Virus record (IMG/VR): IMGVR_UViG_3300048796_000126
Coordinates: 1-28,499 of that record
DNA from: a virus
Taxonomy: Duplodnaviria > Caudoviricetes
Strand: one strand, 5' to 3'
DNA length: 28,499 bases
The notes beneath the pieces were generated by a model that worked only from the letters and a program-made list of their open reading frames with translations, made no database searches and had not been told where the DNA came from. Every line of letters starts with the position of its first letter. The stretch's first letter is position 1. The position numbers were made by a program, and so were the translations under genes. Positions 2,971 through 27,392 of the stretch are shown here, piece after piece.

Positions 2971-3332
2971 CTATACTTCTTCTAATCACTCTTCTTTTCA
3001 TCAAACATTTCATTGTTGATTTTCCACTTCAGAAAGAATATCAATGGAAAAACAAAGGTACATATGGACATTTTGGTGGTATTCTACATGCTGGAACCCA
3101 TGGTATTTTTACACTTTTAATTTTGCTATATTTTACATCTGATACTACATTACTTTGGTTGGCATATGTAGATTTCTGGTTGCACTATCATATTGATTGG
3201 GCAAAAATGAATCTCAATAAAAAGCTAGGATATACACCAACCAATAGTGAAGGATTTTGGATTTTACTAGGTGTAGATCAATTACTTCATGCTTTAACCT
3301 ACATTTTAATTACAGGAGTTGTTTTGTTATGA
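2967..3332 (+). CDS. DUF3307-like His-rich membrane protein
   Basis: KHFIVDFPLQ, LHAGTHG, HYHIDW and GVDQLLH motifs with TM segments. Confidence 0.8.
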   Translation: MTILLLITLLFIKHFIVDFPLQKEYQWKNKGTYGHFGGILHAGTHGIFTLLILLYFTSDTTLLWLAYVDFWLHYHIDWAKMNLNKKLGYTPTNSEGFWILLGVDQLLHALTYILITGVVLL

Positions 3333-3763
3333 TTGGTACTTATGTTGCAGTAAAAGTTCTAAAACCTTGTTCGTCTTATTTATATAAATTCTGCCAAGAT
3401 AAAGGCATTCCTACTGATCAACATATGTTTGAACATGACTTACATACTACTTTAATTTACAGTAGAAAACCATGTCCAGATATTATCACTATGCCAAATT
3501 TAGTACATGAAGCATACTTCAATGGATTTGATATGTTTTCTAATAGTCATGGTGAGAAATGTGTTCTGGTAATGAAATTGAATGCTCCTACATTGGTACA
3601 GAGACATTTACTTTTGATGGAACAGCATCAAGCTACTTATGATTTCGAATCATATGTACCGCATATCACATTAAGTTATGATTTCATGGGAGATATTTCG
3701 ACCTTACTTCCTTACACTAAAGAAATTTTATTGAGTAATGAATGGATTGAAGAATTAGAGTAG
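3329..3763 (+). CDS. acb1: Anti-CBASS Acb1-type 2H phosphodiesterase (T4 gp57B-like)
   Basis: Two HxT motifs, LHTTLIYSR and ATYDFESYVPHITLSY, plus N-terminal GTYVAVK; colinear with T4 57B as I recall it. Start moved to the ATGA overlap at 3329. Confidence 0.85.
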   Translation: MIGTYVAVKVLKPCSSYLYKFCQDKGIPTDQHMFEHDLHTTLIYSRKPCPDIITMPNLVHEAYFNGFDMFSNSHGEKCVLVMKLNAPTLVQRHLLLMEQHQATYDFESYVPHITLSYDFMGDISTLLPYTKEILLSNEWIEELE

Positions 3764-4742: not shown

Positions 4743-4993
4743 CTTATTTAAATGATGCTAGTAACAATTTAACAATCGACCACTTACAATCTAAAATTTT
4801 AATTGGCTCTAGGATTAAACGGGAAAGTTTTGATCCAGAAAATAAAGATCATTTAAAAAGTTACTTAAAATATATTAATTCTGGGAATTGGGGAGAAGTA
4901 CACTTCTTTTCAGAAGCTCCATTTGTAACTGTTCCTGCAACAGTCAATCATCGTTATGCATTACATACACTGAAAGAAAAGTTGATTAAGTGA
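4739..4993 (+). CDS. Hypothetical protein
   Basis: ATGA/GTGA overlaps on both sides; GAGG SD. Confidence 0.7.
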   Translation: MTYLNDASNNLTIDHLQSKILIGSRIKRESFDPENKDHLKSYLKYINSGNWGEVHFFSEAPFVTVPATVNHRYALHTLKEKLIK

Positions 4994-5508
4994 AATCTGT
5001 TTTAAATGATAGAATTCTTTGGTATGATGGAACTAATCAGGTTATTCCTGAATTGGTTCCTGATTTATTGATGCAAGGAATCCCACCAAATCAAATATTT
5101 GTCACAGAAGAAAATGAAGATATTAAACAATTCAATTTGTTATGTGATGAACAAATATTATCAAATAAACAAGATAATAATTTCCCGGAAAGAGAATGGC
5201 AAATACCAGAAGAATATTTAAATTTAGACATTGATACTTATATAGATCAATTACTGAAGGTACAATTTCCTGATAATATGTTTTATCAAGAAAGAATAAA
5301 TTCTGAGATGGAACAAATACATTCTAGAAAATTAGAAAGTCTAATAAAAACATTGATATACATTGTAGATACATTTAAAAAAAGCAATCAAGTATTTGGA
5401 GTAGGTAGGGGATCATCCTGTGCTTCTTTGGTATTATTTTTAATAGGAATACATAAAGTAGACCCGGTAAAATATAATATATCTATGTACGAATTCTTCC
5501 ACAATTAG
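4990..5508 (+). CDS. DnaE (Pol III alpha)-like polymerase, N-terminal piece
   Basis: YQERINSE...GVGRGSSCASLVLFLIGIHKVDPVKY...EFF corresponds to DnaE GPGRGSxAGSLVAYxLGITxxDP...FERFL. Confidence 0.85.
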   Translation: MKSVLNDRILWYDGTNQVIPELVPDLLMQGIPPNQIFVTEENEDIKQFNLLCDEQILSNKQDNNFPEREWQIPEEYLNLDIDTYIDQLLKVQFPDNMFYQERINSEMEQIHSRKLESLIKTLIYIVDTFKKSNQVFGVGRGSSCASLVLFLIGIHKVDPVKYNISMYEFFHN

Positions 5509-6193: not shown

Positions 6194-7270
6194 ATGTTTT
6201 TTGCATTACTTGTTTTTATTGCTGCATTTTTATTAGAAGGAATCGGTACATATATTTCAACAGTCGGACTTAGTTTAATTTTTGCTAGTTCTCCAATTAT
6301 TATTGCATTGGCAGTAGTATTAGATTTTGCTAAAGTGATCACTGTCAGTTTTTTATATAAGTATTTTGATAAAGTAAATTTAGTCATGAAATCATACATG
6401 ACAATAGCTGCAATGGTGTTAATGATTATTACATCAGCAGGTGCATTTGGATTTATGAGTGCTGCCTTTCAACAAAGTATATCTGGCACAAATCAAGATT
6501 CTGTATTGCTTCAATCTATGACAGATGAGCAAGTTAAATTACAATCGCGTAAAGAAGAAATAGATAAACAAATTGCTAATTTACCAAGTAATACGGTGAG
6601 GGGCAGAGCTACATTGATGAAGCAATTTGCTCCAGAAGTAGATAAAATCAATTCAAGATTATTAGAAATAGATAAGCAATTACCGGAATTGAAAGTCTCT
6701 TCTATCAAGAAAAATGTAGAAGTGGGTCCAATCATTTACATTGCTCAAGCCTTTAATACTGATCCAGAACATGCGGTGAAGTATGTAATTTTAATCATTA
6801 TCTTTGTGTTTGATCCATTAGCTATTGCATTGTTAATAGCTGGCAATTTTTTATTGGCATTGAAAAAAGATGAACCAATTCCAGTAGAACCATTACTTCC
6901 TGTTGAAAAAGTAATTAAATCACCAATAGATAAAATTCCAGAGGCTGAACAAGAAATAAAAGTTGATAAAAATTTAGATATAAATTTACCAGAAATAACA
7001 TATTATGATACACCAGATGATAAAGTACCTTTTCATATGCCAGAAATTCAACCAGAATATGTTGATCCACATCAGGAACTAAAATCTTTGGATAGAGACT
7101 CACTACATCAATCACTTGGTAGAGAACGATTTAAAGAATTGGTAAAAGTAGATGATATTACTTTAGAACAACTTCAACCAACTAAATCTTCTTTGGATAC
7201 TTTGCAACCATATAAAGAACCATTTTTCAATAGAGAACAAGGTGGAATGATTCGTTATCCGAAAGTATAA
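6194..7270 (+). CDS. Multi-TM membrane protein with a coiled-coil and an acidic/Pro-rich tail
   Basis: Three N-terminal TM segments, a coiled-coil, and a further TM (IIIFVFDPLAIALL). Start at 6194 supported by AGGAG SD; 6167 is an alternative. Confidence 0.8.
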   Translation: MFFALLVFIAAFLLEGIGTYISTVGLSLIFASSPIIIALAVVLDFAKVITVSFLYKYFDKVNLVMKSYMTIAAMVLMIITSAGAFGFMSAAFQQSISGTNQDSVLLQSMTDEQVKLQSRKEEIDKQIANLPSNTVRGRATLMKQFAPEVDKINSRLLEIDKQLPELKVSSIKKNVEVGPIIYIAQAFNTDPEHAVKYVILIIIFVFDPLAIALLIAGNFLLALKKDEPIPVEPLLPVEKVIKSPIDKIPEAEQEIKVDKNLDINLPEITYYDTPDDKVPFHMPEIQPEYVDPHQELKSLDRDSLHQSLGRERFKELVKVDDITLEQLQPTKSSLDTLQPYKEPFFNREQGGMIRYPKV

Positions 7271-7328
7271 GATTACTTTCCTAATTTTGTAGTATATAAT
7301 TTTATTTATTTATTTAACAGGAATCACT

Positions 7329-10538: not shown

Positions 10539-11117
10539 ATGAATGCTGCTGATATTGATATAGATACCCCTACCACATTTAATCCAAAGGATTATTTTCC
10601 ATGGACTAAGGCATCTATTTTAAGAAGTAATGATTTATTTCCTCATCCGTGCGGTTTTTATCCTGAGAATATTCCAGAGGATAATGTAACAGGATTAGCA
10701 GCTATACCTTATGAAGATGCAGAGAATCTTGGATATTCTAAAATAGACTTTTTACATTTAAGTATTTATGATCACTTTAAAACTAGAGATGAAATTGATA
10801 CATTACTTACTATTGAACCTGATTGGGGATTGTTAGTTATTCCATCAGAACAAAAGAAATTATTTCAATTGGCAAATCATGGTGATGTATTATCAGCAGT
10901 TAAACCAAAAGATATTATGACCTTGGCAGATGTATTAGCATTGATCAGACCGGGTAAAAAGAAATTACTTAAATTATATTTGGCACAGAAAGAAACTACT
11001 AGAAAAATATTATATCAAAAAGATGAGACTGGATATTCATTTAAGAAAAGTCACGCTATATCTTATGCACATGTGATATGGTTACAACTACATCTAATCG
11101 AAATGGGACTTATATGA
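10539..11117 (+). CDS. DnaE (Pol III alpha)-like polymerase, catalytic piece
   Basis: DIDID at the N-terminus, HPCG (DnaE HAAG), GYSKIDFL (third catalytic Asp), LALIRPG, and GYSFKKSHAISYA. Confidence 0.88.
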   Translation: MNAADIDIDTPTTFNPKDYFPWTKASILRSNDLFPHPCGFYPENIPEDNVTGLAAIPYEDAENLGYSKIDFLHLSIYDHFKTRDEIDTLLTIEPDWGLLVIPSEQKKLFQLANHGDVLSAVKPKDIMTLADVLALIRPGKKKLLKLYLAQKETTRKILYQKDETGYSFKKSHAISYAHVIWLQLHLIEMGLI

Positions 11118-11738: not shown

Positions 11739-12275
11739 ATGACTGCAATTGTTGGCGTAGAATTTAATGGCAAAGTATACATGGCTGGTGATCTTCAGGG
11801 TACTGGAGGCAATAATAAAATTATTCATACACAGCCAAAATTATTCAATAAAAAGGGTGTATTGTTTGGATTTACTACAAGTTACAGATTTGGTCAAATT
11901 TTAGATCATCTTCTACCTGATCCAGTAGTACCAGAGAATCCAGAAGAGGTTTATCGATGGTTGATTACTGTATTGATTCCAGATATCAAAAAAGCAATGA
12001 AAGATGCAGAATGGACTACCGGAGGCTCTTGTTTGATTGGTGTTAAGGGTCAACTATGGGAGCTTCAAAATGATTGGAGTGTTCTTAGATCAGTATCGGG
12101 GTATGCAGCAGTAGGAGCTGGCACAGAATATGGAAATGCAAGTATGATGACAAATTTGAAAATTAAACCCCCTAAAAATGGAGCAGATGTAATATTAATA
12201 TTACAAAACACTATGGAAGTAATTAGTCAATTTTGTCCATCTGTAGGACAAGAAGCATTTATTCTTGAAAGTTAA
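11739..12275 (+). CDS. HslV/proteasome-beta-like Ntn-hydrolase peptidase
   Basis: N-terminal Thr after Met (MTAIVG), MAGD, PKLF, and YAAVGAG. Confidence 0.75.
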   Translation: MTAIVGVEFNGKVYMAGDLQGTGGNNKIIHTQPKLFNKKGVLFGFTTSYRFGQILDHLLPDPVVPENPEEVYRWLITVLIPDIKKAMKDAEWTTGGSCLIGVKGQLWELQNDWSVLRSVSGYAAVGAGTEYGNASMMTNLKIKPPKNGADVILILQNTMEVISQFCPSVGQEAFILES

Positions 12276-12322: not shown

Positions 12323-13477
12323 ATGATCAAAATTTACGCTGTGGGTGGAAGTGTCAGGGATTCATTACTTGGTATTGAATCTTATGACCGTGATTATGTG
12401 GTTGTAGGAGCCACAGAACAGGATATGCTCAATCTTGGATATACCAAGGTAGGAGCAGACTTCCCTGTGTTCATGGCTCCTAATGGTGATCAATATGCTT
12501 TGGCAAGGAAAGAACGTAAAACCGGTAAAGGCTATAATGGTTTTACCGTAGAATTTGATCCATCTGTTACATTGAAAGAAGACTTAGAACGGCGTGATTT
12601 AACCATTAATAGTATTGCTCAAGATTTAGAAACTGGAGAAATCATTGATTACTTTGGTGGATTGGATGATTTGAAAAATAAAGTGCTTAGACATACATCA
12701 GATGCATTTTCAGAAGACCCATTACGTGTTATTAGATTGGCAAGATTTAGTTCTAAATTTCCTGAATTTACCATTGCAGAAGATACAAAAAAACTATGTA
12801 TTGATTTAGTACAATCTGGTACATTGAATGAATTGCATGATAATCGCATCATGGTAGAAATTACAAAAGTATTTACTTATGATAATTTTATTAACTTTTT
12901 TCTTACCTTGGAAAAGTTTAGTGCATTTAATAAAGTGAATTTTTTTAAAGATTTATTTGGATATGATCAAGAATATAATATTTTTGTAATTGAGGATATA
13001 CATATTACTATTGCCAACATAATTTCTTCTATGGATATTAATCTTGTACAAAAAATAAAATATTTCACTGTTTTGTTTAGAGATGCTTATGCTGATATGA
13101 GTTCAAAATGTATTCCTAAAAACATTAAGAAATTGGCTGAACACTTTGATATAATGATAGATTTGGGATTATACGGAGGATATTATAATTTAGAGTTTTA
13201 TGAAAATATTTACGGATTTTTAAAAACAATCAAAGCATATTCAGATGTAGAAGAAGATGTTCAGGATATTGTTAATATTTTGTATATTATGGAGGAGTGT
13301 GATATTGAATGGATTTTTACCAGTGAAGATTTTGTTGATTTCCTCAATGAAGCAGTATATAATAATCCTGTTATAGCTTCTCAATTTCCAAATCTAACTG
13401 GAAAAGCTCTTGGTGAAGCTATTGAAAATAAACGCATTGAAAATGTCAAGTTGGCATTTATAAAAGTAAAGGATTAA
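12323..13477 (+). CDS. cca: Class II tRNA nucleotidyltransferase (CCA-adding enzyme), no HD domain
   Basis: YAVGGSVRD, DRDYVV, ALARKERKTGKGYNGF loop, RRDLTIN, EDPLRVIRLARF. Confidence 0.92.
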   Translation: MIKIYAVGGSVRDSLLGIESYDRDYVVVGATEQDMLNLGYTKVGADFPVFMAPNGDQYALARKERKTGKGYNGFTVEFDPSVTLKEDLERRDLTINSIAQDLETGEIIDYFGGLDDLKNKVLRHTSDAFSEDPLRVIRLARFSSKFPEFTIAEDTKKLCIDLVQSGTLNELHDNRIMVEITKVFTYDNFINFFLTLEKFSAFNKVNFFKDLFGYDQEYNIFVIEDIHITIANIISSMDINLVQKIKYFTVLFRDAYADMSSKCIPKNIKKLAEHFDIMIDLGLYGGYYNLEFYENIYGFLKTIKAYSDVEEDVQDIVNILYIMEECDIEWIFTSEDFVDFLNEAVYNNPVIASQFPNLTGKALGEAIENKRIENVKLAFIKVKD

Positions 13478-13479
13478 TA

Positions 13480-14721
13480 ATGAATCAGCTATTTAAAATT
13501 TTAACAGGTTCAAGACTATATGGTACATTTACGGATACATCCGATTATGACTATAAAGTAATTACTTTGCCTCCATTGGAAGATGTTTTGCTTGGTAAAA
13601 AATTAGTCAATTATAAAGAAGTACCTGAAGGTAAAGGTGCTCATGATTCTATGCCAGATAATGGTATTGAAACAGAATATATTCCATTACAGGTTTTCTT
13701 TAATGATTTCTTTGCTGGTCAAACTTATGCTGTAGAATTAGCTTTTGCTATTTTACAAGGTAAGTATGATTCACAGTATAATTATCAAAGCACCATTGAT
13801 AAAATTCTGTATATTTTGGAGAATCTGAATAAAGATGATTTATTGTGTGATCATACTCAGGCTATTGAAGAAATTAAAAAAATTGAAGGAGTTAGGTTTT
13901 CTGAAGAAGAATACCATAGTGATAGTTTTGATATTAATCTAATTAGGCCGGTTTTCACCATTGCACCTTTTACTGAACCAATTAAATTTCGAACTGAAGT
14001 TGGTATGCTTAAATATCATCTTAATAATTTGAAATGTGGTGATTATTCAGAAATTTATTTCTTAACTGAAATGATTCAAGATTTAGTTGAGAACTTTCTT
14101 ACTAAAGATGTAAAGAAAATGATGGGATATGCAGTATCTCAGGCTAAAGTATATGGTGCTAAAACAGATCGTTATGTTACTGTAGTATCTGCAATAGATA
14201 TTCTTAGTTCAGAAAATGGCAAATGTATTCTTAATGAAATGCCTAAATTAATAGAAGCACTTCTTAAATTACCATTTACGAATATTAATTCTACAGAAGT
14301 TAATAATGTAGTTAATAATACAATTGTCATTAATCATAAGCAATACCCTTTGTCCTGTCAATTGGATTATATTGTTAATTCACTGAAAGCTACTGAACAT
14401 ACCTATGGAGACCGGGTTAAATCTTTTCAAGGAACAGGTGCTGATTGGAAAGCAATGGCACATGCTGTTAGGATTGTAAAACAGATTCAGGAATTATCTA
14501 CTACTGGAACAATTTTATTTCCATCAAAAGATATTGATCAAATTAAATCGATCAGAAATGGCTTAATGGAAGTAGAAGATGCAACCAATTTATTGAATGA
14601 TTCGATTGTAAAAGCCGAAGAATCTATTATGAATTCGATTCTTCCAGCTAAAACTCCAGAAATGATTGAAATGTTTAATCACTGGAAAATAAATGTATTG
14701 AAATCTTTATACTACATTTGA
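13480..14721 (+). CDS. Pol-beta-superfamily nucleotidyltransferase
   Basis: GSRLYGT...SDYDYK signature; C-terminal DWKAMAHAVR. Confidence 0.85.
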   Translation: MNQLFKILTGSRLYGTFTDTSDYDYKVITLPPLEDVLLGKKLVNYKEVPEGKGAHDSMPDNGIETEYIPLQVFFNDFFAGQTYAVELAFAILQGKYDSQYNYQSTIDKILYILENLNKDDLLCDHTQAIEEIKKIEGVRFSEEEYHSDSFDINLIRPVFTIAPFTEPIKFRTEVGMLKYHLNNLKCGDYSEIYFLTEMIQDLVENFLTKDVKKMMGYAVSQAKVYGAKTDRYVTVVSAIDILSSENGKCILNEMPKLIEALLKLPFTNINSTEVNNVVNNTIVINHKQYPLSCQLDYIVNSLKATEHTYGDRVKSFQGTGADWKAMAHAVRIVKQIQELSTTGTILFPSKDIDQIKSIRNGLMEVEDATNLLNDSIVKAEESIMNSILPAKTPEMIEMFNHWKINVLKSLYYI

Positions 14722-15144
14722 TTTTTTAAATTTGATTTCCTCATGTTCCTGTGGGGAAATTACTCTGCGTCTTCTTACTTTTGAAGTATTCATTTTACTA
14801 TAGGAAAATGCATGTCCTATGATTCTTGATACATATAATGCTTCAAATGTTTTATAGATAGGAGAAAAAGTTTGAGTTAATCCAAGAGTACTAAGTTCAA
14901 TACTTAATGGATGCTTTTCAGAATTAGAATAGAACCAATTGGTAACAAGTGTTAAAAAGTCAGGAACAAAGATATTAGATTGTTCTGCAAAATCTAATAC
15001 ATAAGCACCGATTTCTGTTTCTGAAATGTTATCAATAATACATAAGTATTGTTCTCTACGATATTCTAACAGGGAAATAAATTTGTAATTTGCACTAGAA
15101 TTAACCATTTCAATTTTAAGTTCTGGTATTTTTTTCTTTGCCAT
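14707..15144 (-). CDS. Hypothetical protein
   Basis: ATG at 15144 with AAAGG SD and TATAAATA (15176-15183, minus strand) upstream. Confidence 0.75.
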   Translation of the reverse strand: MAKKKIPELKIEMVNSSANYKFISLLEYRREQYLCIIDNISETEIGAYVLDFAEQSNIFVPDFLTLVTNWFYSNSEKHPLSIELSTLGLTQTFSPIYKTFEALYVSRIIGHAFSYSKMNTSKVRRRRVISPQEHEEIKFKKSNVV

Positions 15145-18492: not shown

Positions 18493-19332
18493 ATGTTAAA
18501 AATTCGTGAAGGATCAGACTTCCATATTGGCTATCAATTTGATCAAATAAATGTAGATAGCAAAACTATTGTTAATCAAATTCTCCCTCCATTAGACGGT
18601 GATAAAGAAACCGTACTGCTTTTATGTGGGGATATCGGTGTTGCTAAACAAGTTAAAAGAATTGTAAATTTCTTGGATATAGTAGTTCCCAGATTTAAAC
18701 ACGTCATTTATTTGTTTGGAAATCATGAACATTATCACTCAAAATTAAATAATACTTTTTCTATTATTGATAATGCAGTAGCTTCTCATCTTGGTTATAC
18801 TCCAAATCTAACTATTGTTGGTAATGAACCTCAATGTATATCCATTGATGGAGTAAGATTTTTATGTAGTACTATGTGGACAGATTATGGTAATGGTGAT
18901 CCTCATGTGCATGAATTAGTTAAGAGACATATTAATGATCATCATTACATTACTAATGATGATAATTCTTTAGTTCAACCTGATGATTTATCTAAAATAT
19001 TTCATCACACTATTCAAAAATTTGAATGTCTATTAGATGGATATGACAATTCCAGAACAGTTATAGCAACACATCACATGCCATCTTTTGATGCGGTTGA
19101 TCCTATGTACATGGTTGATCCAACTACTAGAGTGTTGAATCATGCATTTGCATCTAATTTGAATGAATTTATTATTAAGCATAAACCTGCTGTTTGGTGC
19201 TTTGGTCATACTCATAACAAATATAATGATTTTATTGGTTCTACAAATTTAAAATGTAATCCATTTGGATATGCTAAAGAAATGAATTTGTATCATAAAG
19301 TATATAATCCGAGATTTAGTTTTGAGGTATAA
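18493..19332 (+). CDS. Calcineurin-like metallophosphoesterase
   Basis: SDFH, CGDIG, GNHEHY, THHMP, GHTH. Confidence 0.9.
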   Translation: MLKIREGSDFHIGYQFDQINVDSKTIVNQILPPLDGDKETVLLLCGDIGVAKQVKRIVNFLDIVVPRFKHVIYLFGNHEHYHSKLNNTFSIIDNAVASHLGYTPNLTIVGNEPQCISIDGVRFLCSTMWTDYGNGDPHVHELVKRHINDHHYITNDDNSLVQPDDLSKIFHHTIQKFECLLDGYDNSRTVIATHHMPSFDAVDPMYMVDPTTRVLNHAFASNLNEFIIKHKPAVWCFGHTHNKYNDFIGSTNLKCNPFGYAKEMNLYHKVYNPRFSFEV

Positions 19333-20961
19333 ATGCAACCAAAATATGAGCTAGTTCAACCGGCAACACAAAAGCATATTTACACTAGTGCTGGTATTAT
19401 TTATTGTGATGTATACAGAATTAAAGCATTACAAGATTTTGGACAAATAAAAATTGGGGATATCGGTGGATATGTTGAATCAGAGAAAAATTTATCTCAA
19501 GTAGGAACTTGTTGGATAGATTTTGATTCTATTGTAGTAGAACATGCCATCATTGGAGAATCTGCTTTTATTAAAAACAGTTTAATTTATGAATTAGCTT
19601 ATGTTGGTGGTGCATCATTTATAGAAGACTCTATTATTTTTGGATGTTCTACTATTCATAGTTCTGATGTTACAGATTCTGAAATTTTTGATAATGCAGA
19701 TGTTTGTTTAGCAGATATTGCTCATTCTAAAATTTATGGAAATGCAGATATCAATACGTTTACTTATAATGCCCCATGTACATTTATTAGAAATTCACAT
19801 ATTTATGATAATGTAAGTTTATCAAAAGATTTAAATATTGATGGGTTAATCATAAATGAAAATGTATCTCTTATAGGACCACAAACGTTAAATATACATA
19901 ATGTAACAGGTGGGATTATTGGTGATAGTATTATGCAGTCTATTGTGGTTATTTGGCCTTTTCCAGCATCCATTAAAAATCCAAAATATAAATTAACAAC
20001 CATTAGCAAAAATATAAATTTCAGTGTAGTTTATCAAATTGAAGCATTGAGAAATTTCAGTGATGTAAAAGCTGGAGATTTAGGTGGATGGATCGAAAGT
20101 GACCACAACTTATCCCATGAAGATGATTGTTGGGTATATGATAATTCTGTGGTATATGACCAAGCTCAAGTTTTAAATGATGCTAAAATTAAAAATAATT
20201 CTGAAATTTCTGAACGAGCAATTGTTAAAGGAAATTGTATCATTGATAATTATTTGGTATATGGAAAAGCTTTTATTAATGGAGATAAAACATTATTAAC
20301 TATTTCTGGAAATCCACATTCTCTTGATAATGCGATTTTTGGTAAAGCTAATATTACTGGTAATACTAATCTTATTGATACTAGTGTACAAGATAGAGCT
20401 TGTATTAATATTTATCATTGTATATTATCTAAATGTACATTATATGGCTATGCTACTATAGATGGAAATGTAACTTTAACAGGCTGTAGTGTGGGTGACT
20501 ATGTTTATATTACTTTGCCATCACCTCTTGTCCAACCCGGACATTTTAATGCTGAAAATTGTATGTTTGTTGGTATTTTAAATTTGGTTAAACCGATACA
20601 AATTTTAGGATCAAATAAATCCAATCCTATAGTGGTTGATCAAGAATATATTGATATTAATTTTACTAATAATGGAAATAATCAGACCCAAAGTAGTACG
20701 GTTTCTGCCACTTGGTCTAAAGGATTAAACAACATTGAAATTGAATATAGTAATTCAAATGTTGTTTGGGAGTTTGAAATTCCAGAAAATACTACTTACT
20801 TTGAATACTTAAATTTGGTGATTAATAAATTACTTTCTGAAAATATTAAAATTGATACTAAAGGAAGTGAATATCATTTTACATATAATGGAAAAGATCA
20901 TATACTTACTAATACAACTTTCCAAGATAACCTAGACACGTTGAAATATATTAAAATATGA
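19333..20961 (+). CDS. Beta-helix (LbH-like) repeat protein, paralog 1
   Basis: Two copies of IxALxxF...GDxGGxxES..NLS....CW, each followed by short hexapeptide-like repeats. Confidence 0.8.
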   Translation: MQPKYELVQPATQKHIYTSAGIIYCDVYRIKALQDFGQIKIGDIGGYVESEKNLSQVGTCWIDFDSIVVEHAIIGESAFIKNSLIYELAYVGGASFIEDSIIFGCSTIHSSDVTDSEIFDNADVCLADIAHSKIYGNADINTFTYNAPCTFIRNSHIYDNVSLSKDLNIDGLIINENVSLIGPQTLNIHNVTGGIIGDSIMQSIVVIWPFPASIKNPKYKLTTISKNINFSVVYQIEALRNFSDVKAGDLGGWIESDHNLSHEDDCWVYDNSVVYDQAQVLNDAKIKNNSEISERAIVKGNCIIDNYLVYGKAFINGDKTLLTISGNPHSLDNAIFGKANITGNTNLIDTSVQDRACINIYHCILSKCTLYGYATIDGNVTLTGCSVGDYVYITLPSPLVQPGHFNAENCMFVGILNLVKPIQILGSNKSNPIVVDQEYIDINFTNNGNNQTQSSTVSATWSKGLNNIEIEYSNSNVVWEFEIPENTTYFEYLNLVINKLLSENIKIDTKGSEYHFTYNGKDHILTNTTFQDNLDTLKYIKI

Positions 20962-22457
20962 AAAAATATGAATTAGTAAACCCTACAACAAAGATAATCG
21001 ATGGACTCTCTTATGATTTATTTCAGATTAAAGCATTAAAAAATTTTACTATTTCTTGGTATAATACTGATATTTTGGCTGGTGATTTAGGAGGATTTGT
21101 ACAATCAGAAAATAATTTATCACAAGAAGGAAGTTGCTGGTTGTTTAATGATTCTGTAGTCATTAATAATGCAAAAGTTTTAAATGAATCTGTAGTTAAA
21201 AATTCTACAATTTATAATGATGCTACAATAAAAGGAAGTTCCAATATTAATACTAGTGTTATTTATTTATGTAGTGAAGTAAATAATTCCGCTATCTACG
21301 ATTCCACTATATATGATAATTCAACTGTTGAAGATTCTTTTGTTAAAAAATCCTCTGTTTATGAAAATTCATTTATATGTAAATGTAAAATAGATTTCAG
21401 TGCGATATCTGGATGCGTGTGTCTTAACAATATAAAACTTAACGATATGAAAATGTTTGGGAATTATGATCTTGATGCCAAAATGTTTAATGGATCACCA
21501 ACTTTATCTAATCATACTTTAGGTGATATTGAATTTGCTAAAGTATTCATAAAAAATAGTAATCCTAACCCTACCAAATATCATTTGGTAAATGGAACTA
21601 TTTTTCATAATTCGAATGGCGCTAATCCCGTTTTTCAAATTCAAGCATTAAAAGATTTTGACAATATTAAAGCTGGAGATTTAGGTGGTTTTATTTCCGG
21701 CTATCATAATCTTTCTCAATTTGGAAATTGTTGGGTAGCTGTAAATAGCTATGTATTAGATAATGCTAAAGTATTGGGAAACTCTAAAATTGTAAATAGT
21801 ATCATAATGGAAAAGGCTAATGTTGATGGATATGACACAATAATAGAAGGTTCTACCATTTCTGGTTGTGCTCTGGTAGGATCATCAAATTTTAATAGCA
21901 TGGGAGTGCATATTGAATGTTCACAAATTTCTGGAAAATCTGACATTTCTGGATATGTAAAAATCATCGATTGTAATATTGGGAATAAAAGTCTTATAAT
22001 CACTAGAAATCCCCTTAACCTTGCAAATTCTAAAATAAATATTATTGAAAGTTGTATTATGTCTGATTTAAGTAATATTATATTAGGTGAAAAAGATAGC
22101 GAAATTAAATATTGTAAATTTTATAATAGAAGTTTTATTAATGGTAGTACAGTATTATTAAATAGTATGACTTATTTATTTAATGATATCGTGACCGTTA
22201 ATCCAACCACTATTATTGTTTATAATATGGAAGCATCTGATGAAGAATTAAAAATTAAAGAATTTGTTATTCCAAAAAATACAACATATCTAGAATATTT
22301 AAATTTGATAATTAATAAATTAATATCTCTTGGTATAAACATTTCTATTATTGGTAGTAACTATAATTTTACATATCAACAAAATTCCTACTCTCTTACC
22401 AATTCTACATACGAAGATAATTTGGGTTCTTTATCTATCCTCCAAACTATATTCTAA
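20958..22457 (+). CDS. Beta-helix (LbH-like) repeat protein, paralog 2
   Basis: Same two-module architecture and a shared C-terminal domain (EFxIPxNTTYxEYLNL). Confidence 0.8.
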   Translation: MKKYELVNPTTKIIDGLSYDLFQIKALKNFTISWYNTDILAGDLGGFVQSENNLSQEGSCWLFNDSVVINNAKVLNESVVKNSTIYNDATIKGSSNINTSVIYLCSEVNNSAIYDSTIYDNSTVEDSFVKKSSVYENSFICKCKIDFSAISGCVCLNNIKLNDMKMFGNYDLDAKMFNGSPTLSNHTLGDIEFAKVFIKNSNPNPTKYHLVNGTIFHNSNGANPVFQIQALKDFDNIKAGDLGGFISGYHNLSQFGNCWVAVNSYVLDNAKVLGNSKIVNSIIMEKANVDGYDTIIEGSTISGCALVGSSNFNSMGVHIECSQISGKSDISGYVKIIDCNIGNKSLIITRNPLNLANSKINIIESCIMSDLSNIILGEKDSEIKYCKFYNRSFINGSTVLLNSMTYLFNDIVTVNPTTIIVYNMEASDEELKIKEFVIPKNTTYLEYLNLIINKLISLGINISIIGSNYNFTYQQNSYSLTNSTYEDNLGSLSILQTIF

Positions 22458-23369: not shown

Positions 23370-24492
23370 AATTATAGATAAAACATTAATTAATACATGA
23401 TAATAACTAAAAAGTTCCGATTAAAAGACAAACATGCTTCGCATTTAAATTCGATGGCACGTGAGGTCAATTATATCTGGAATTTTGCTAATGAAACAAG
23501 AGCTAAAGCAGCTAGTCCTCAGTATGTTGGGAAACGAAAATTTCTTAGTGGGTTTGATTTGATTAATCTTACTTCTGGATATGTTAAAGAATATGATAGT
23601 AAATTAAATGCACAAAGTGTACAAGCTATTTGTGAAGAAGTAGCACTTCGTGGAAAGCAATTTAAAAAGACAAAATTGAAATGGAGAACCAACAATCCTA
23701 AGTCATCTAAGAAGTCACTTGGTTGGATTCCATTTAAAAGCAGTGCGATTAAATTTGTTAATGGACAAATCCGATATAATGGTCATTTCTTTAATTTTTG
23801 GGATTCGTATGATTTACCCAAAGATACAAAAATATTATGTGGGTCATTCAATCAAGATGCAAGAGGTAGGTGGTATATTAATCTTGTTATTGACGAACCT
23901 ATAAAACAATCTTCTGGAACTGGGTCTATTGCATTGGATTTCGGTGTAAAAGATATTGCTGGATTAAGTGATGGAACAATAATTGAAGCACAGATGTTTT
24001 ATAAGAAATCAGAAGAAAAGCTTGCTAAATCACAACGTGCTAGAACCAAGAAAAAAACAAGAAGTATCCATGCTAAAATAGCAAATCAACGCAAGGATTA
24101 TTTACATAAATTTAGTAGTAAATTAATAGCTGAAAACGCAGCTATATTTGTTGGAAATGTCAGTCTTAACTTCCTTTTATCAGGAAACTCTGGTAAGAAA
24201 ACCAGAGACCACGGAATAGGAATGTTTAAAGATATGCTCAAGTACAAAAGCCATCAGGCAGGAGTCATATACGAAGTGATTGATGAAAAGTATTCAACCC
24301 AAACCTGCTCGTGCTGTGGGGTAATACCCATAAGTAGTCCGAAAGGTAGTGCAGGACTTTGGATAAGAGAATGGACTTGTTGTGAATGCAACACAACGCA
24401 TGACAGAGATGTTAATGCGGCAAAAGTCATTCTTGCGCGAGGACATTCGCGTCTGAGAGGAATCTCCTGCAAGCAAGGGGAGTAGATGTCAA
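23340..24492 (+). mobile_element. Non-autonomous IS200/IS605-family element (tnpB only)
   Basis: Right end GGAATCTCC...GGGGAGTAGATGTCAA ends in TCAA at 24489-24492; no tnpA; left boundary approximate. Confidence 0.7.
23397..24485 (+). CDS. tnpB: TnpB RNA-guided endonuclease
   Basis: N-terminal KFRL...NYIWN, RuvC-I ALDFG, zinc finger TCSCC...CCEC, RuvC-III HDRDVNAA. Confidence 0.93.
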   Translation: MIITKKFRLKDKHASHLNSMAREVNYIWNFANETRAKAASPQYVGKRKFLSGFDLINLTSGYVKEYDSKLNAQSVQAICEEVALRGKQFKKTKLKWRTNNPKSSKKSLGWIPFKSSAIKFVNGQIRYNGHFFNFWDSYDLPKDTKILCGSFNQDARGRWYINLVIDEPIKQSSGTGSIALDFGVKDIAGLSDGTIIEAQMFYKKSEEKLAKSQRARTKKKTRSIHAKIANQRKDYLHKFSSKLIAENAAIFVGNVSLNFLLSGNSGKKTRDHGIGMFKDMLKYKSHQAGVIYEVIDEKYSTQTCSCCGVIPISSPKGSAGLWIREWTCCECNTTHDRDVNAAKVILARGHSRLRGISCKQGE

Positions 24493-25676: not shown

Positions 25677-26255
25677 ATGAACATGACATTAGCACAGAAA
25701 CAAGCAATGCAAACTTTTTTACAAGCAGGACATTTCATATTTGAAGTAGCCTATAATCCAACTACAACTACTGATTCTCCTAACCCGGAAACTGAAGCTA
25801 TTGATAATGGATATATTTTGTATATTGATCCTGTTACTAGTGCATCCATGAGACAAGTATCTGCTGAATTGATTGAAAATTTATATTACTTGGTAGCACC
25901 AGATGGAACAAATGTTGGGAATAGTCAATTTAATGGATTTCCTCCAAGTGCACCTCCACAATTACCAACTACCCCGGATGGATCAACAGGTCCTGCTGCT
26001 ATTGGTTCACCAAATTATCAAGGGCTACCACCATCATATCCACCACAATTACCAACTACCCCGGATGGATCAACAGGTCCTGCTGCTATTGGTTCACCAA
26101 ATTATCAAGGTCTGCCTCCCTCATATCCACCACAATTACCAGTTGCAACTGATGGATCAAGTGGTCCAGCATCTATTGGCACAGATACTTACACAGGATT
26201 TCCACAAAGTTATCCTGCCTCAATACCGGGAACTGGTACAGATAATTCCCCATAA
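25677..26255 (+). CDS. Pro/Gly/Thr-rich repeat protein
   Basis: 29-aa repeat PPQLPTTPDGSTGPAAIGSPNYQGLPPSY. Confidence 0.8.
   Translation: MNMTLAQKQAMQTFLQAGHFIFEVAYNPTTTTDSPNPETEAIDNGYILYIDPVTSASMRQVSAELIENLYYLVAPDGTNVGNSQFNGFPPSAPPQLPTTPDGSTGPAAIGSPNYQGLPPSYPPQLPTTPDGSTGPAAIGSPNYQGLPPSYPPQLPVATDGSSGPASIGTDTYTGFPQSYPASIPGTGTDNSP
25953..26213 (+). repeat. 87-bp in-frame tandem repeat, 3 copies
   Basis: Units start at 25953, 26040 and 26127; the first two are nearly identical and the third is diverged. Confidence 0.9.
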
Positions 26256-26308
26256 AATATATTTTGTAAGAAGTTTTAGTTTTTAGATTTTTAGTATATA
26301 ATTTTAAG

Positions 26309-26599
26309 TAGTAAGAACAGCGTAAAGTTAAATTGAGAAAAGTTGGAATGGACTCCGGGGCAGTGCCGGACATCTCCAAATATATATTAAAAATAGTATA
26401 TATTTGGAGGGGGTGAAACAGAATCGACATACAAAAGAGTAACTTTTTGATCGCTAGTCAGGCGAATGACTTTAATATAGCAAAAACCTTAAATGCAAAT
26501 GATACATTCGCATATGCTCTTGCTGCTTAATCTTAGGATTAAGTAACTAAATAGAGCGGAGTTTTCGGTGGATTTTCTTAGCAACAGGATAAACCCACC
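26309..26599 (+). ncRNA. ssrA: Circularly permuted (two-piece) tmRNA
   Basis: The 3' tRNA-like half comes first: GAC, T-stem TCCGG/CCGGA, loop GGCAGTG, CATCTCC-A at 26371-26378. After a 30-nt spacer comes the 5' half GGGGGTGAAACAGAATCGAC from 26409, giving a G3:U pair. The tag ORF 26495-26530 is ANDTFAYALAA*. TATAAT at 26297-26302; outer ends approximate. Confidence 0.92.
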
Positions 26600-26630
26600 A
26601 CCTATTCATGATGAAACAGGAGAAGATGAT

Positions 26631-26858
26631 ATGCAGAAACTTTCAAACTTTGCTACTAATTTACTTGTAATATTCTATAATTTTTCTGATCAATTTGGAA
26701 AAGTGGATATGCAGACAGTAACTAAATATCTCAAAGAGAAACATAATATTTCTATTCCACTATCTCCTGTTACTATAACACAAGACCATATTGATTATTT
26801 AGTTTCTATCAATAAGTTACCAGATGTGAAAAATTTTCTATTAGAAATACATAAATAA
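26631..26858 (+). CDS. Hypothetical protein
   Basis: AGGAG SD before ATG 26631; the listed start at 26568 lies inside the tmRNA. Confidence 0.6.
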   Translation: MQKLSNFATNLLVIFYNFSDQFGKVDMQTVTKYLKEKHNISIPLSPVTITQDHIDYLVSINKLPDVKNFLLEIHK

Positions 26859-26897
26859 AAGTAGTACTTATCATACCATAACATCTGGATAAATATC

Positions 26898-27392
26898 ATG
26901 AAAATTAAAGAAGTATCAGTAGTCAAGGTCGTCCTATGTCTTATATTGACATTTGTTTTAGGGATTGAATTTGGTAATACGATGCTTCGAAGTTACATGA
27001 ATAATAAAATTCCAGATGTAGTCTTCTCTCCAATGTTTTTCTCTGATTCACTTTCTATTCAATATTCTATTTTGAATAATGATGCATCTGTTACAGCTTG
27101 GATTAGAGTTGATACATCCGATGGATTGGAAGCTAAAAATTTAAAAGGTAATACTGAATTTGTAAAAGCACAGGTGCTATGTGATGTACCGATGATTAGA
27201 CTACATGAAATACGTATGTATGATAGTCAAATGAATTTAGTAGGTGTAAGTACAGATTTTGATGATAATTATAAAACTCCAGCTTCTATGCTCAGTGCAA
27301 TTTCAGTAGTTGGAATATGTAGTGCAGCTAAAAACGTGGATGTATCAAATAAAGTTTTCAAAGAAAAAGATGATCCAAAATCAAACACATAA
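26898..27392 (+). CDS. Membrane-anchored or exported protein (adhesin-E-like fold possible)
   Basis: N-terminal hydrophobic segment; beta-rich domain with two Cys. Confidence 0.65.
   Translation: MKIKEVSVVKVVLCLILTFVLGIEFGNTMLRSYMNNKIPDVVFSPMFFSDSLSIQYSILNNDASVTAWIRVDTSDGLEAKNLKGNTEFVKAQVLCDVPMIRLHEIRMYDSQMNLVGVSTDFDDNYKTPASMLSAISVVGICSAAKNVDVSNKVFKEKDDPKSNT

Follow-up and report, generated by a model that had tools for sequence, protein, structure and literature searches.

Two-piece transfer-messenger RNAs (tmRNAs) have been described from Alphaproteobacteria (the Caulobacter type; Keiler et al. 2000) and from Betaproteobacteria (Sharkady and Williams 2004), both as cited in Buchholz et al. 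2022 (PMC9004378). Phages carry them as well: according to the passages on phage tmRNAs in that paper, the OM43 phage Melnitz has a two-piece tmRNA, and 18,146 phage genomes yielded 133 unique tmRNAs, 53 of them two-piece, and a section of a 2025 tmRNA database paper counts 79 bacteriophage sequences (PMC11915505). Here we describe a circularly permuted tmRNA gene on the + strand of the IMG/VR record IMGVR_UViG_3300048796_000126, a 28,499-nucleotide (nt) stretch of DNA from a tailed virus (Caudoviricetes) that was analysed at its full length and is called the window below. We conclude that it is a genuine phage two-piece tmRNA, which is a kind of phage gene already published, and we compare it with the genes that occupy the same locus in related phages.

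The gene resembles the alphaproteobacterial type (Rfam family RF01849) in its gene order, its GGCNGUN T-loop, the P2 helices that join the pieces, the UAAAU-GCA resume context, an AND...AA tag and the GCAACAG loop of its terminal hairpin; the family-defining T-loop and the GGCAACAGAA-type loop were taken from the Rfam consensus. It differs from that type in being phage-borne, in not encoding CCA whereas the Rfam consensus has ACCA, and in a leader, P2a helix and PK1 loop that are common to phage relatives scoring as beta-type; its acceptor piece and PK1 region are nearest to phage relatives with standard T-loops. The Caulobacter tag ends in ...FAVAA, whereas the tag encoded here ends in YALAA. 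With the beta-type (RF01850) tmRNAs of the phage relatives G402, G403, G406, G407 and others (G numbers, which also include G427, G447, G448 and G449, are labels of the viral records compared, and L numbers those of loci), the gene shares its locus, its flanking genes, the permuted architecture and homology in P2a and PK1. Its T-loop is GGCAGTG, whereas theirs is of the UUCGAUU type, and its terminal hairpin is alpha-type where they have a CCUUGU...AACGG hairpin and a GC-rich terminal stem-loop.

The tmRNAs of Melnitz, pelagimyophages and cyanophages, as far as the passages in PMC9004378 describe them, are likewise encoded by a permuted ssrA gene in phages of the lytic type, show alpha-type features and lie among replication and transcription genes, and no phage SmpB is reported here. 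Melnitz is given there as a marine T4-like phage of ~140 kilobases (kb) with a glutamine riboswitch, whereas the window comes from a jumbo-phage clade of ~350 kb seen in peat and freshwater runs, and a search for riboswitches and other RNA families near its tmRNA gene found none (for the glutamine riboswitch, none at E ≤ 1). The gene also differs from those of that group in not encoding CCA, and blastn against 50,697 deposited phage records gave no match.

Identity and structure of the gene

The gene scores above the gathering thresholds of two Rfam models. RF04321 (tmRNA_permuted; threshold 47 bits) matches 26319-26530 with 115.1 bits (E 4.3e-22) over the full model (1-213), and 28 of the 31 base pairs modelled in this alignment are canonical; relatives score 75-143 bits. 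RF01849 (alpha_tmRNA; threshold 50 bits) matches 26270-26599 with 82.1 bits and is the best match within its clan, and the beta model RF01850 gives 40.7 bits, under its threshold of 84. The match to a permuted tmRNA is far beyond chance. An earlier reading, made from the letters of the sequence only (the sequence-only reading), had proposed that a phage contig carries a circularly permuted tmRNA gene and had named an Infernal search with these models as a check; the search bears the proposal out, and every element that the reading listed lies where it had been placed. ARAGORN reported no tmRNA in the window, but since ARAGORN -m also misses 54 of the 120 viral permuted tmRNA loci described next, this silence is uninformative.

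Counts of homologues, here and below, refer to the matches listed in a search of viral contigs with the alpha-type T-arm pattern, namely at least 120 loci, with ~260 estimated in the collection. De-duplication left 104 sequences, of which 89, the window included, have an identifiable acceptor 5′ strand; several of the 15 that lack one are truncated by contig ends.

The order within the gene is permuted, in that one side of the P2 helices, the T arm and the acceptor 3′ strand (26319-26378) come before the acceptor 5′ strand, the other side of P2, PK1 and the tag frame (26409-26599), with a 30-nt spacer between them. The parts are as follows:

26319-26322, + strand: P2a 5′ strand AGCG, paired with CGCT at 26452-26455 in the RF04321 alignment; helps to join the pieces
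26337-26344, + strand: putative P2b 5′ strand GAAAAGTT, paired with AACTTTTT at 26441-26448
26354-26370, + strand: T arm, with the stem TCCGG (26354-26358)/CCGGA (26366-26370) and the alpha-type loop GGCAGTG (26359-26365)
26371-26378, + strand: acceptor 3′ strand CATCTCC (26371-26377) and discriminator A (A26378)
26379-26408, + strand: intervening segment of 30 nt, predicted to be removed
26409-26428, + strand: acceptor 5′ strand GGGGGTG (26409-26415; G1 is 26409 and G3 is 26411) and D-loop analogue AAACAGAATCGAC
26441-26455, + strand: P2b 3′ strand AACTTTTT (26441-26448) and P2a 3′ strand CGCT (26452-26455)
26456-26471, + strand: PK1 hairpin AGTCA-GGCGAA-TGACT with the conserved AGGCGA loop
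26495-26530, + strand: tag frame GCA...TAA encoding ANDTFAYALAA, with the predicted resume codon GCA at 26495 and the stop codon TAA at 26528-26530
26524-26545, + strand: hairpin of 9 base pairs (bp) containing the stop codon
26567-26599, + strand: 3′-terminal hairpin GGTGG (26567-26571)/CCACC (26595-26599), with the loop AGCAACAGGA at 26580-26589 (alpha consensus GGCAACAGAA)

The acceptor strands pair at seven of seven positions, with G3:U70 (26411:26375) and a second wobble, G5:U68. The G3:U70 pair is the determinant for alanyl-tRNA synthetase (AlaRS). Both the complete stem and the alanine determinant had been read from the sequence, and the homologues agree, since seven of seven acceptor pairs are found in 88 of the 89 unique sequences and G3:U70 likewise in 88. 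Those T-stem positions that the search pattern leaves free pair in all 89, with four and two pair types. Covariation is seen at pairs 1 and 3 of the T stem and at pair 5 of the acceptor stem, the last of which is G:C in 51 sequences, C:G in 30, A:U in seven and G:U in one, the window.

The complementarity between GAAAAGTT and AACTTTTT, which had been suggested to join the two pieces, is confirmed as eight contiguous pairs located where the covariance model puts P2. The model's own register at P2b pairs three of four positions and is poorer, and the GAAAAGTT/AACTTTTT helix is plausibly P2b. P2a is AGCG/CGCT in the window, G447, G448 and G427, and takes the compensatory forms TGTTG/CAACA in G449, TGTCG/CGACA in L265, G406 and G402, and TGCCG/CGGCA in G403. 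The covariation check thus bears on two sets of sequences: the listed viral homologues for the T stem and acceptor pair 5, and the relatives for P2a and the PK1 stem. The duplex energy of P2 did not discriminate true from mismatched partners (medians of -14.5 kcal/mol for true acceptor and coding pieces and -12.75 kcal/mol for mismatched ones). Minimum-energy cofolding of the two pieces restored the 7-bp acceptor stem once the spacer was removed.

The PK1 stem covaries in the relatives (AGTCA/TGACT, CGTC/GACG, CGCC/GGCG and CGGC/GCCG) around the conserved AGGCGA loop. The sequence-only reading had instead combined TCGCT/GGCGA with AGTCA/TGACT into a pseudoknot. Both complementarities are present, but the pseudoknot is unsupported: its connecting loops would be 0, 1 and 1 nt long, and loops of this length are too short to span the grooves of 5-bp stems. 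Its first stem pairs at five of five positions in the window only, and at two to three of five in G449, L265 and G406 despite the same loop. The RF04321 model pairs CGCT (26452-26455) with AGCG (26319-26322) as P2a and leaves AGTC...GACT as a plain hairpin. Since P2a is kept by compensatory changes while the other pairing falls to two to three of five, the TCGCT strand belongs to P2a. These pairing counts cover the six sequences with an unambiguous hairpin placement, plus the Rfam alignments. A second pseudoknot stem of only 3 bp is possible between AGG (26460-26462) and CCT (26487-26489).

The resume context TAAAT-GCA (26490-26497), the tag ANDTFAYALAA with its stop codon and the terminal GGTGG/CCACC hairpin were all confirmed, and an in-frame GCA at 26480 may be an alternative resume codon. 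The tag and its context match the commonest forms among the listed alpha-T-loop viral tmRNAs: among 76 readable tags, the ending is YALAA in 21, FALAA in 17 and LALAA in 12 (50 of 76 together), and TAAATGCA (TAAAT-GCA) is the most frequent resume context (17 of 76). The alpha-type T-loop and the ...ALAA tag are thus both present, as had been claimed. The further suggestion that a GGCAGU-type T-loop with a YALAA tag marks a distinct lineage is not borne out, since this combination is common among alpha-T-loop viral tmRNAs. Nor is the RNA compact, as had also been proposed: TCGAC and the GCAACAG loop motif lie 152 nt apart, whereas the median spacing is 130 nt in the 32 listed sequences with the exact motif.

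A locus kept in very large phages

A search with the ATP-dependent DNA ligase encoded in the window found three related viral records: G402 (56 kb, GC content 53%), G403 (336 kb, 98% complete, GC content 46%) and a 7-kb fragment. G402 and G403 have a permuted tmRNA downstream of the ligase. Gene order agrees over a dozen genes between the window and the ligase relatives; G427, G447 and G449 are also syntenic, the latter two over the ligase region. In G402, the tmRNA is flanked by homologues of both genes that neighbour it in the window:

25677-26255, + strand: upstream flanking gene; homologues beside the tmRNA in G402, G406 and G449
26631-26858, + strand: downstream flanking gene with the ribosome-binding site GGAGAAG; homologues in 12 viral loci, eight with a tmRNA upstream

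The 12 loci come from an alignment search with the downstream protein; in the eight, the permuted tmRNA lies directly upstream, and L259, L264, L268 and L269 are without one. In a ligase tree of eight rows, none of them dropped, the window, G402, G403, G427, G447 and G449 are united with support of 100/100 against two distant outgroups. The complete or near-complete members of this clade are 336-368 kb long (G403, and G448 with 368 kb, 100% completeness and terminal repeats), and the CheckV completeness of 8% given for the 28,499-nt window implies a genome near 350 kb. Judged by gene order and the ligase tree, the window is a piece of a clade of ~340-370-kb jumbo phages in which a tmRNA is retained between one conserved pair of genes, which is new here.

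A search with the window's CCA-adding enzyme found a permuted tmRNA in 12 of 42 records. Eight of these tmRNAs are beta-type, in phages with an estimated full size of ~350 kb. Two are alpha-type, in ~200-kb phages in which the window's flanking genes do not occur within the 1.5 kb checked on either side. The last two are those of G426 and G427 (27% GC), whose best subtype score is beta, with 62 bits, below the threshold.

Searches for closer copies of the gene itself gave little. An exact 21-nt pattern from the coding piece had no match in viral contigs, and the T-arm pattern found 14 loci in metagenome contigs, 12 of them with CCA and none close (score ≤ 58). Single-query searches with the upstream neighbour protein and with a DNA-polymerase piece found no relatives. 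Among bacterial genomes, the exact T-arm pattern matched once, in a Paramagnetospirillum, and a BLAST search with the gene in 401 genomes sampled from that organism's class gave 18 short matches (21-55 nt), most of them AT-rich and spurious. The Paramagnetospirillum record (G001; L133 and L134) has two permuted tmRNA matches of its own, with 152 and 137.8 bits, the second of which may lie in a prophage or island.

Alpha- and beta-type parts at one locus

We next compared the subtype scores of the tmRNAs in the clade:

window: alpha 82.1 bits, beta 40.7 bits
G447: alpha 89.3 bits, beta 75.9 bits
G449: alpha 80.1 bits, beta 113.5 bits; passes both thresholds
G448 (L260, tmRNA at locus positions 1110-1391): alpha 46.5 bits, beta 48.6 bits, RF04321 75.1 bits; below both subtype thresholds
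G402: alpha 58.3 bits, beta 94.8 bits
G403: alpha 50.3 bits, beta 130.4 bits

Beta scores of the syntenic relatives reach 89.8-130.9 bits. The Rfam subtypes do not partition the phage genes of this clade cleanly.

The discrete characters are distributed in a similar manner. In most clade members, a standard T-loop is combined with a beta-type 3′ domain, and every part is beta-type in G402, G403 and others. Common to the window and G447 are the T-loop GGCAGTG, the D-loop analogue CAG(A/G)ATCGAC and a CTTAGCAACAG loop in the terminal hairpin. In G449, the standard T-loop TTCAAAT occurs together with the alpha-like terminal hairpin CTTGGCAACAGAA, so that an alpha-type terminal hairpin is common to the window, G447 and G449. 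G448 has the T-loop TTCGAAT and a beta-type 3′ end, and its acceptor piece outside the T-loop is 87% identical to that of G447. The G427 leader and P2a (L254, 1490-1510) match the window at 26306-26327 in 18 of 19 nt (GTAGTAA.AACAGCGTAAA), and the rest of that gene is of the standard-T-loop kind. Segment identities do not agree with one another either. The acceptor piece of the window, compared without the T-loop, is most similar to those of G448 (76%) and G447 (73%), and that of G449 goes with G402 and G403 (79-83%); in the 3′ domain, the window comes nearest to G449 (67%) and G448 to G402 (62%).

On the strength of these subtype scores, discrete characters and incongruent segment identities, the tmRNA gene within this clade appears as a mosaic of alpha- and beta-type parts, which is also new here. 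We read the window gene as a product of clade descent at least in its leader, P2a, acceptor strand and PK1, with an elbow and a 3′ domain of the alpha kind. Recombination among phage tmRNA genes, conversion from a host gene and convergence are all possible origins of the mosaic. Tentatively, and with more doubt than confidence, we propose that a tmRNA held at a fixed locus reassorts its acceptor piece, its T-loop/D-loop elbow and its 3′ domain between the alpha and beta two-piece types, by modules that would be reassorted or converted between related phage tmRNA genes. Two points weigh against the mosaic. It rests on short segments and a single-gene tree, so that the same pattern may reflect convergent change, and the inner branches of the ligase tree are unresolved, with G447 and G449 grouped at 85/95 apart from the window.

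A different history, in which the alpha tmRNA of an alphaproteobacterium or of its phage recently displaced an ancestral beta gene when the phage changed host class, would fit the window's alpha score of 82.1 bits and beta score of 40.7 bits amid syntenic relatives that mostly score beta, as well as its GC content of 30.6% against 38-56% in relatives. There is also published precedent for phage tmRNA types that mismatch or track the host, in the passages on Melnitz in PMC9004378. Against such a replacement, the leader and P2a with AACAGCGTAAA, the acceptor strand and the AGGCGA loop are common to the standard-T-loop genes of G448, G427, G449 and G416, and the acceptor piece is 76% identical to that of G448 but 64% identical to an unrelated alpha-type gene. 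The phage, viral-contig, metagenome and sampled-genome searches turned up no close alpha-type donor, bacterial or viral, which makes wholesale replacement by a host alpha-type gene less likely. We regard this history as unlikely.

Acceptor end, maturation and proposed function

The window copy differs from most of its homologues at the acceptor end. AAT follows the discriminator A26378 and CCA is not encoded, so CCA would need to be added post-transcriptionally. CCA is encoded after the discriminator in 117 of the 120 listed viral loci with an alpha T arm, and in 15 of the 15 other tmRNAs of the clade and of relatives found through the CCA-adding enzyme. The legend to Figure 1 of PMC11915505 states that the CCA position of tmRNA genes does not always encode CCA. 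Contigs of two freshwater runs from a separate study confirm the CCA-less base calls: they align to 26287-26437 and 26321-26501 without a substitution, the sole difference being a 1-nt gap at 26482. A pattern for CCA-less acceptor ends found 10 loci in viral contigs, none resembling the window gene (local score ≤ 50); several of them look like tRNA-like ends or integration remnants.

The window itself encodes a candidate supplier of the missing CCA:

12323-13477, + strand: CCA-adding enzyme (tRNA nucleotidyltransferase); phrog_2244, E 4e-91; PF01743, 73 bits

A dedicated enzyme for a CCA-less tmRNA was considered, and this idea is weakened by the relatives: G402 and G403 have homologues of it as well, and their tmRNAs do encode CCA, so the enzyme is a gene of the lineage and not a dedicated partner.

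We then looked for elements from which the precursor could be transcribed:

26297-26302, + strand: -10-like TATAAT, putative precursor promoter, ~16 nt ahead of the first tmRNA helix

Its 36-nt context is 75% identical to an element at 7269-7304 upstream of the clamp-loader gene (repeat family D20), and (A/G)GTATAAT recurs in many intergenic regions of the window; a consensus promoter scan did not call TATAAT at 26297-26302. The resemblance of context suggests a promoter of the tmRNA precursor. A scan for intrinsic terminators found none after the tmRNA gene. An internal promoter for the coding piece was rejected. The motif TAGTATATA occurs at 26292 and 26394 but is not enriched in the window (30 matches with ≤ 1 mismatch against 22.4 +/- 4.8 expected). 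Among the 82 listed homologues with a spacer of ≥ 20 nt, a -10-like hexamer occurs in 41, compared with 30.7 +/- 3.9 in shuffled sequences, and in 19 the hexamer (a TATGAT leader) abuts G1, which is the wrong spacing for a promoter. This TATGAT-like hexamer ending at G1 in 19 of 82 may instead be a conserved 5′ leader motif, possibly tied to recognition by RNase P.

SmpB (PF01668) had no match in the window (~8% of the genome), in G402 or in the 98%-complete G403, so the SmpB of the host would be used. We consider it likely that the gene is a phage-borne permuted tmRNA that is cut into two paired pieces, CCA-tailed and charged with alanine, and that it probably frees ribosomes with host SmpB. 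A single precursor would be transcribed from the upstream -10 element, possibly continuing into the next gene. RNase P would cut 5′ of G26409, a 3′ endo- or exonuclease would trim after A26378, and the CCA-adding enzyme of phage or host would add CCA, the acceptor and coding pieces remaining base-paired after cleavage. Host AlaRS would then alanylate the RNA through G3:U70, and the RNA, bound by host SmpB and EF-Tu, would enter stalled ribosomes. Translation would resume at GCA 26495, and the product, with A-ANDTFAYALAA added, would go to host proteases. The ...LAA end of this tag is a ClpXP-type degron of the classical kind. The phage may benefit in that ribosomes are kept available while host messages are destroyed.

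Several observations weigh against a working tmRNA. The spacer and the adjoining acceptor bases form a perfect 17-bp hairpin (26373-26389 with 26394-26410), which pairs CUCC with GGAG three nucleotides out of the acceptor-stem register. In the isolated segment, this slipped hairpin has -18.5 kcal/mol, compared to -15.2 kcal/mol with an enforced acceptor stem, a difference of 3.3 kcal/mol. The local minimum-energy fold holds the acceptor stem in 86 of the 89 listed sequences, and the window is among the three exceptions; the minimum-energy fold of the two pieces recovers neither the T arm nor P2. The loss of CCA and the G5:U68 wobble, both unique to the window copy, could be early signs of decay. 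DNA runs labelled peat, a possible source of the record, and freshwater contain the tmRNA gene, but the only metatranscriptome run that shares words with the stretch covers 26697-26871, outside the tmRNA.

These points might describe a decaying pseudogene, descended from a functional gene but with its CCA lost and its acceptor stem weakened, and now unused: the two changes are unique to this copy, a competing hairpin is present and the sole RNA run misses the gene. Such a gene would hardly be expected to keep 28 of 31 modelled pairs canonical, an RF04321 score of 115.1 bits within the 75-143 bits of its relatives and an intact tag frame, and the pieces of 151 and 180 nt that are identical in two freshwater runs, apart from the one 1-nt gap, fit a maintained sequence. 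Moreover, tmRNA genes without an encoded CCA are known (Figure 1 legend, PMC11915505). We judge decay improbable.

The same end of the molecule might serve a different purpose, if a CCA-less RNA with a sequestered acceptor bound host SmpB uncharged and so inhibited trans-translation of the host. The absence of CCA, set against the 117 of 120 listed loci and the 15 of 15 related phage tmRNAs, and the 3.3 kcal/mol in favour of the slipped hairpin would agree with this, and parts of two sources describe an RNA of the mycobacteriophage DS6A consisting only of the tRNA-like domain (TLD), or a similar molecule, as an inhibitor of tmRNA (PMC4131195, PMC11915505). A decoy would need neither the intact tag frame, the resume context and the ...YALAA end nor the stop-codon hairpin and the 3′ hairpin; G3:U70 and the discriminator A are also retained, and CCA-adding activity is available from the phage and, presumably, from the host. 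This makes a decoy quite improbable. A bacterial tmRNA gene at a prophage or assembly junction might also be considered, as tmRNA genes are common integration sites and several pattern-scan loci resemble such remnants. For the gene described here this is scarcely credible: same-strand flanks on both sides are conserved beside tmRNAs in 340-370-kb phages, one of them 100% complete, no integrase was found among the protein matches of the window, and one contig, from the likely source run, spans 26100-26900 unbroken. In summary, a two-piece tmRNA that is probably matured, charged and used by the phage is the reading that we retain.

Neighbouring genes and other features

The window has a GC content of 30.6%, and almost all of its genes are on the + strand. 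PHROG and Pfam matches include a helicase, a clamp loader, a dCMP deaminase, pieces of DNA polymerase and the ATP-dependent DNA ligase, as well as the CCA-adding enzyme, RNA-repair-like proteins, an HslV-like peptidase and a TnpB-type transposase. Four further genes, together with the CCA-adding enzyme, look like a set for RNA repair and maintenance of translation, as judged from their family matches: an RNA-ligase-like gene (3257-3760, phrog_755), the HslV-like peptidase (11739-12272, phrog_1040), an RlaP-like nucleotidyltransferase (13480-14718, phrog_388, weak PF10127) and a metallophosphoesterase (18493-19329, phrog_1649).

The gene just upstream of the tmRNA contains three tandem repeats of 87 nt (29 codons) at 25953-26213, with identities of 94% and 68% (family D1). 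A transposase gene of the TnpB/IS605 type (PF07282, PF01385, phrog_506) lies at 23397-24482; it is missing from the syntenic stretch of G402 and so looks like an insertion. Two paralogous hexapeptide-repeat proteins (19333-20958 and 20958-22454; phrog_5070/7964), with internal repeats (families D2-D4), sit between genes that are adjacent in G402, which points to a lineage-specific insertion. Two open reading frames (ORFs), at 4990-5505 and 10539-11114, match different parts of DNA polymerase families (phrog_11127 and phrog_11778), suggesting that the polymerase is split into pieces; the piece at 10539-11114 is 63% identical to a G403 protein. An intergenic element of 53 nt (family D9) is repeated at 521-573 and 1044-1096 and contains a near-consensus sigma-70 promoter (TTGACA, 17 nt, TATACT/TATAAT), so that these elements are likely early promoters. 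Finally, a minus-strand ORF at 14707-15144, without a family assignment, is conserved in G403, G427 and G447 (44-55% identity), which indicates a real gene.

Implications

Taken alone, the gene adds another example to the phage two-piece tmRNAs and alters little; what makes it valuable is comparison. Relatives at the same locus differ in T-loop, 3′ domain, encoded CCA and GC content (27-56%), and thus form a natural series with which to ask in which parts a tmRNA has to fit the SmpB, AlaRS, RNase P and proteases of the host, and whether the 'three independent' permuted lineages swap parts. The CCA-less copy, in a phage with its own CCA-adding enzyme, offers a test case for a phage enzyme that matures a phage tmRNA. 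If the parts are indeed reassorted, the subtypes would not be clean lineages, and phages may be a site at which parts of two-piece tmRNAs are exchanged and possibly carry them between bacterial classes, the elbow being switched to suit the SmpB and the ribosome of a new host.

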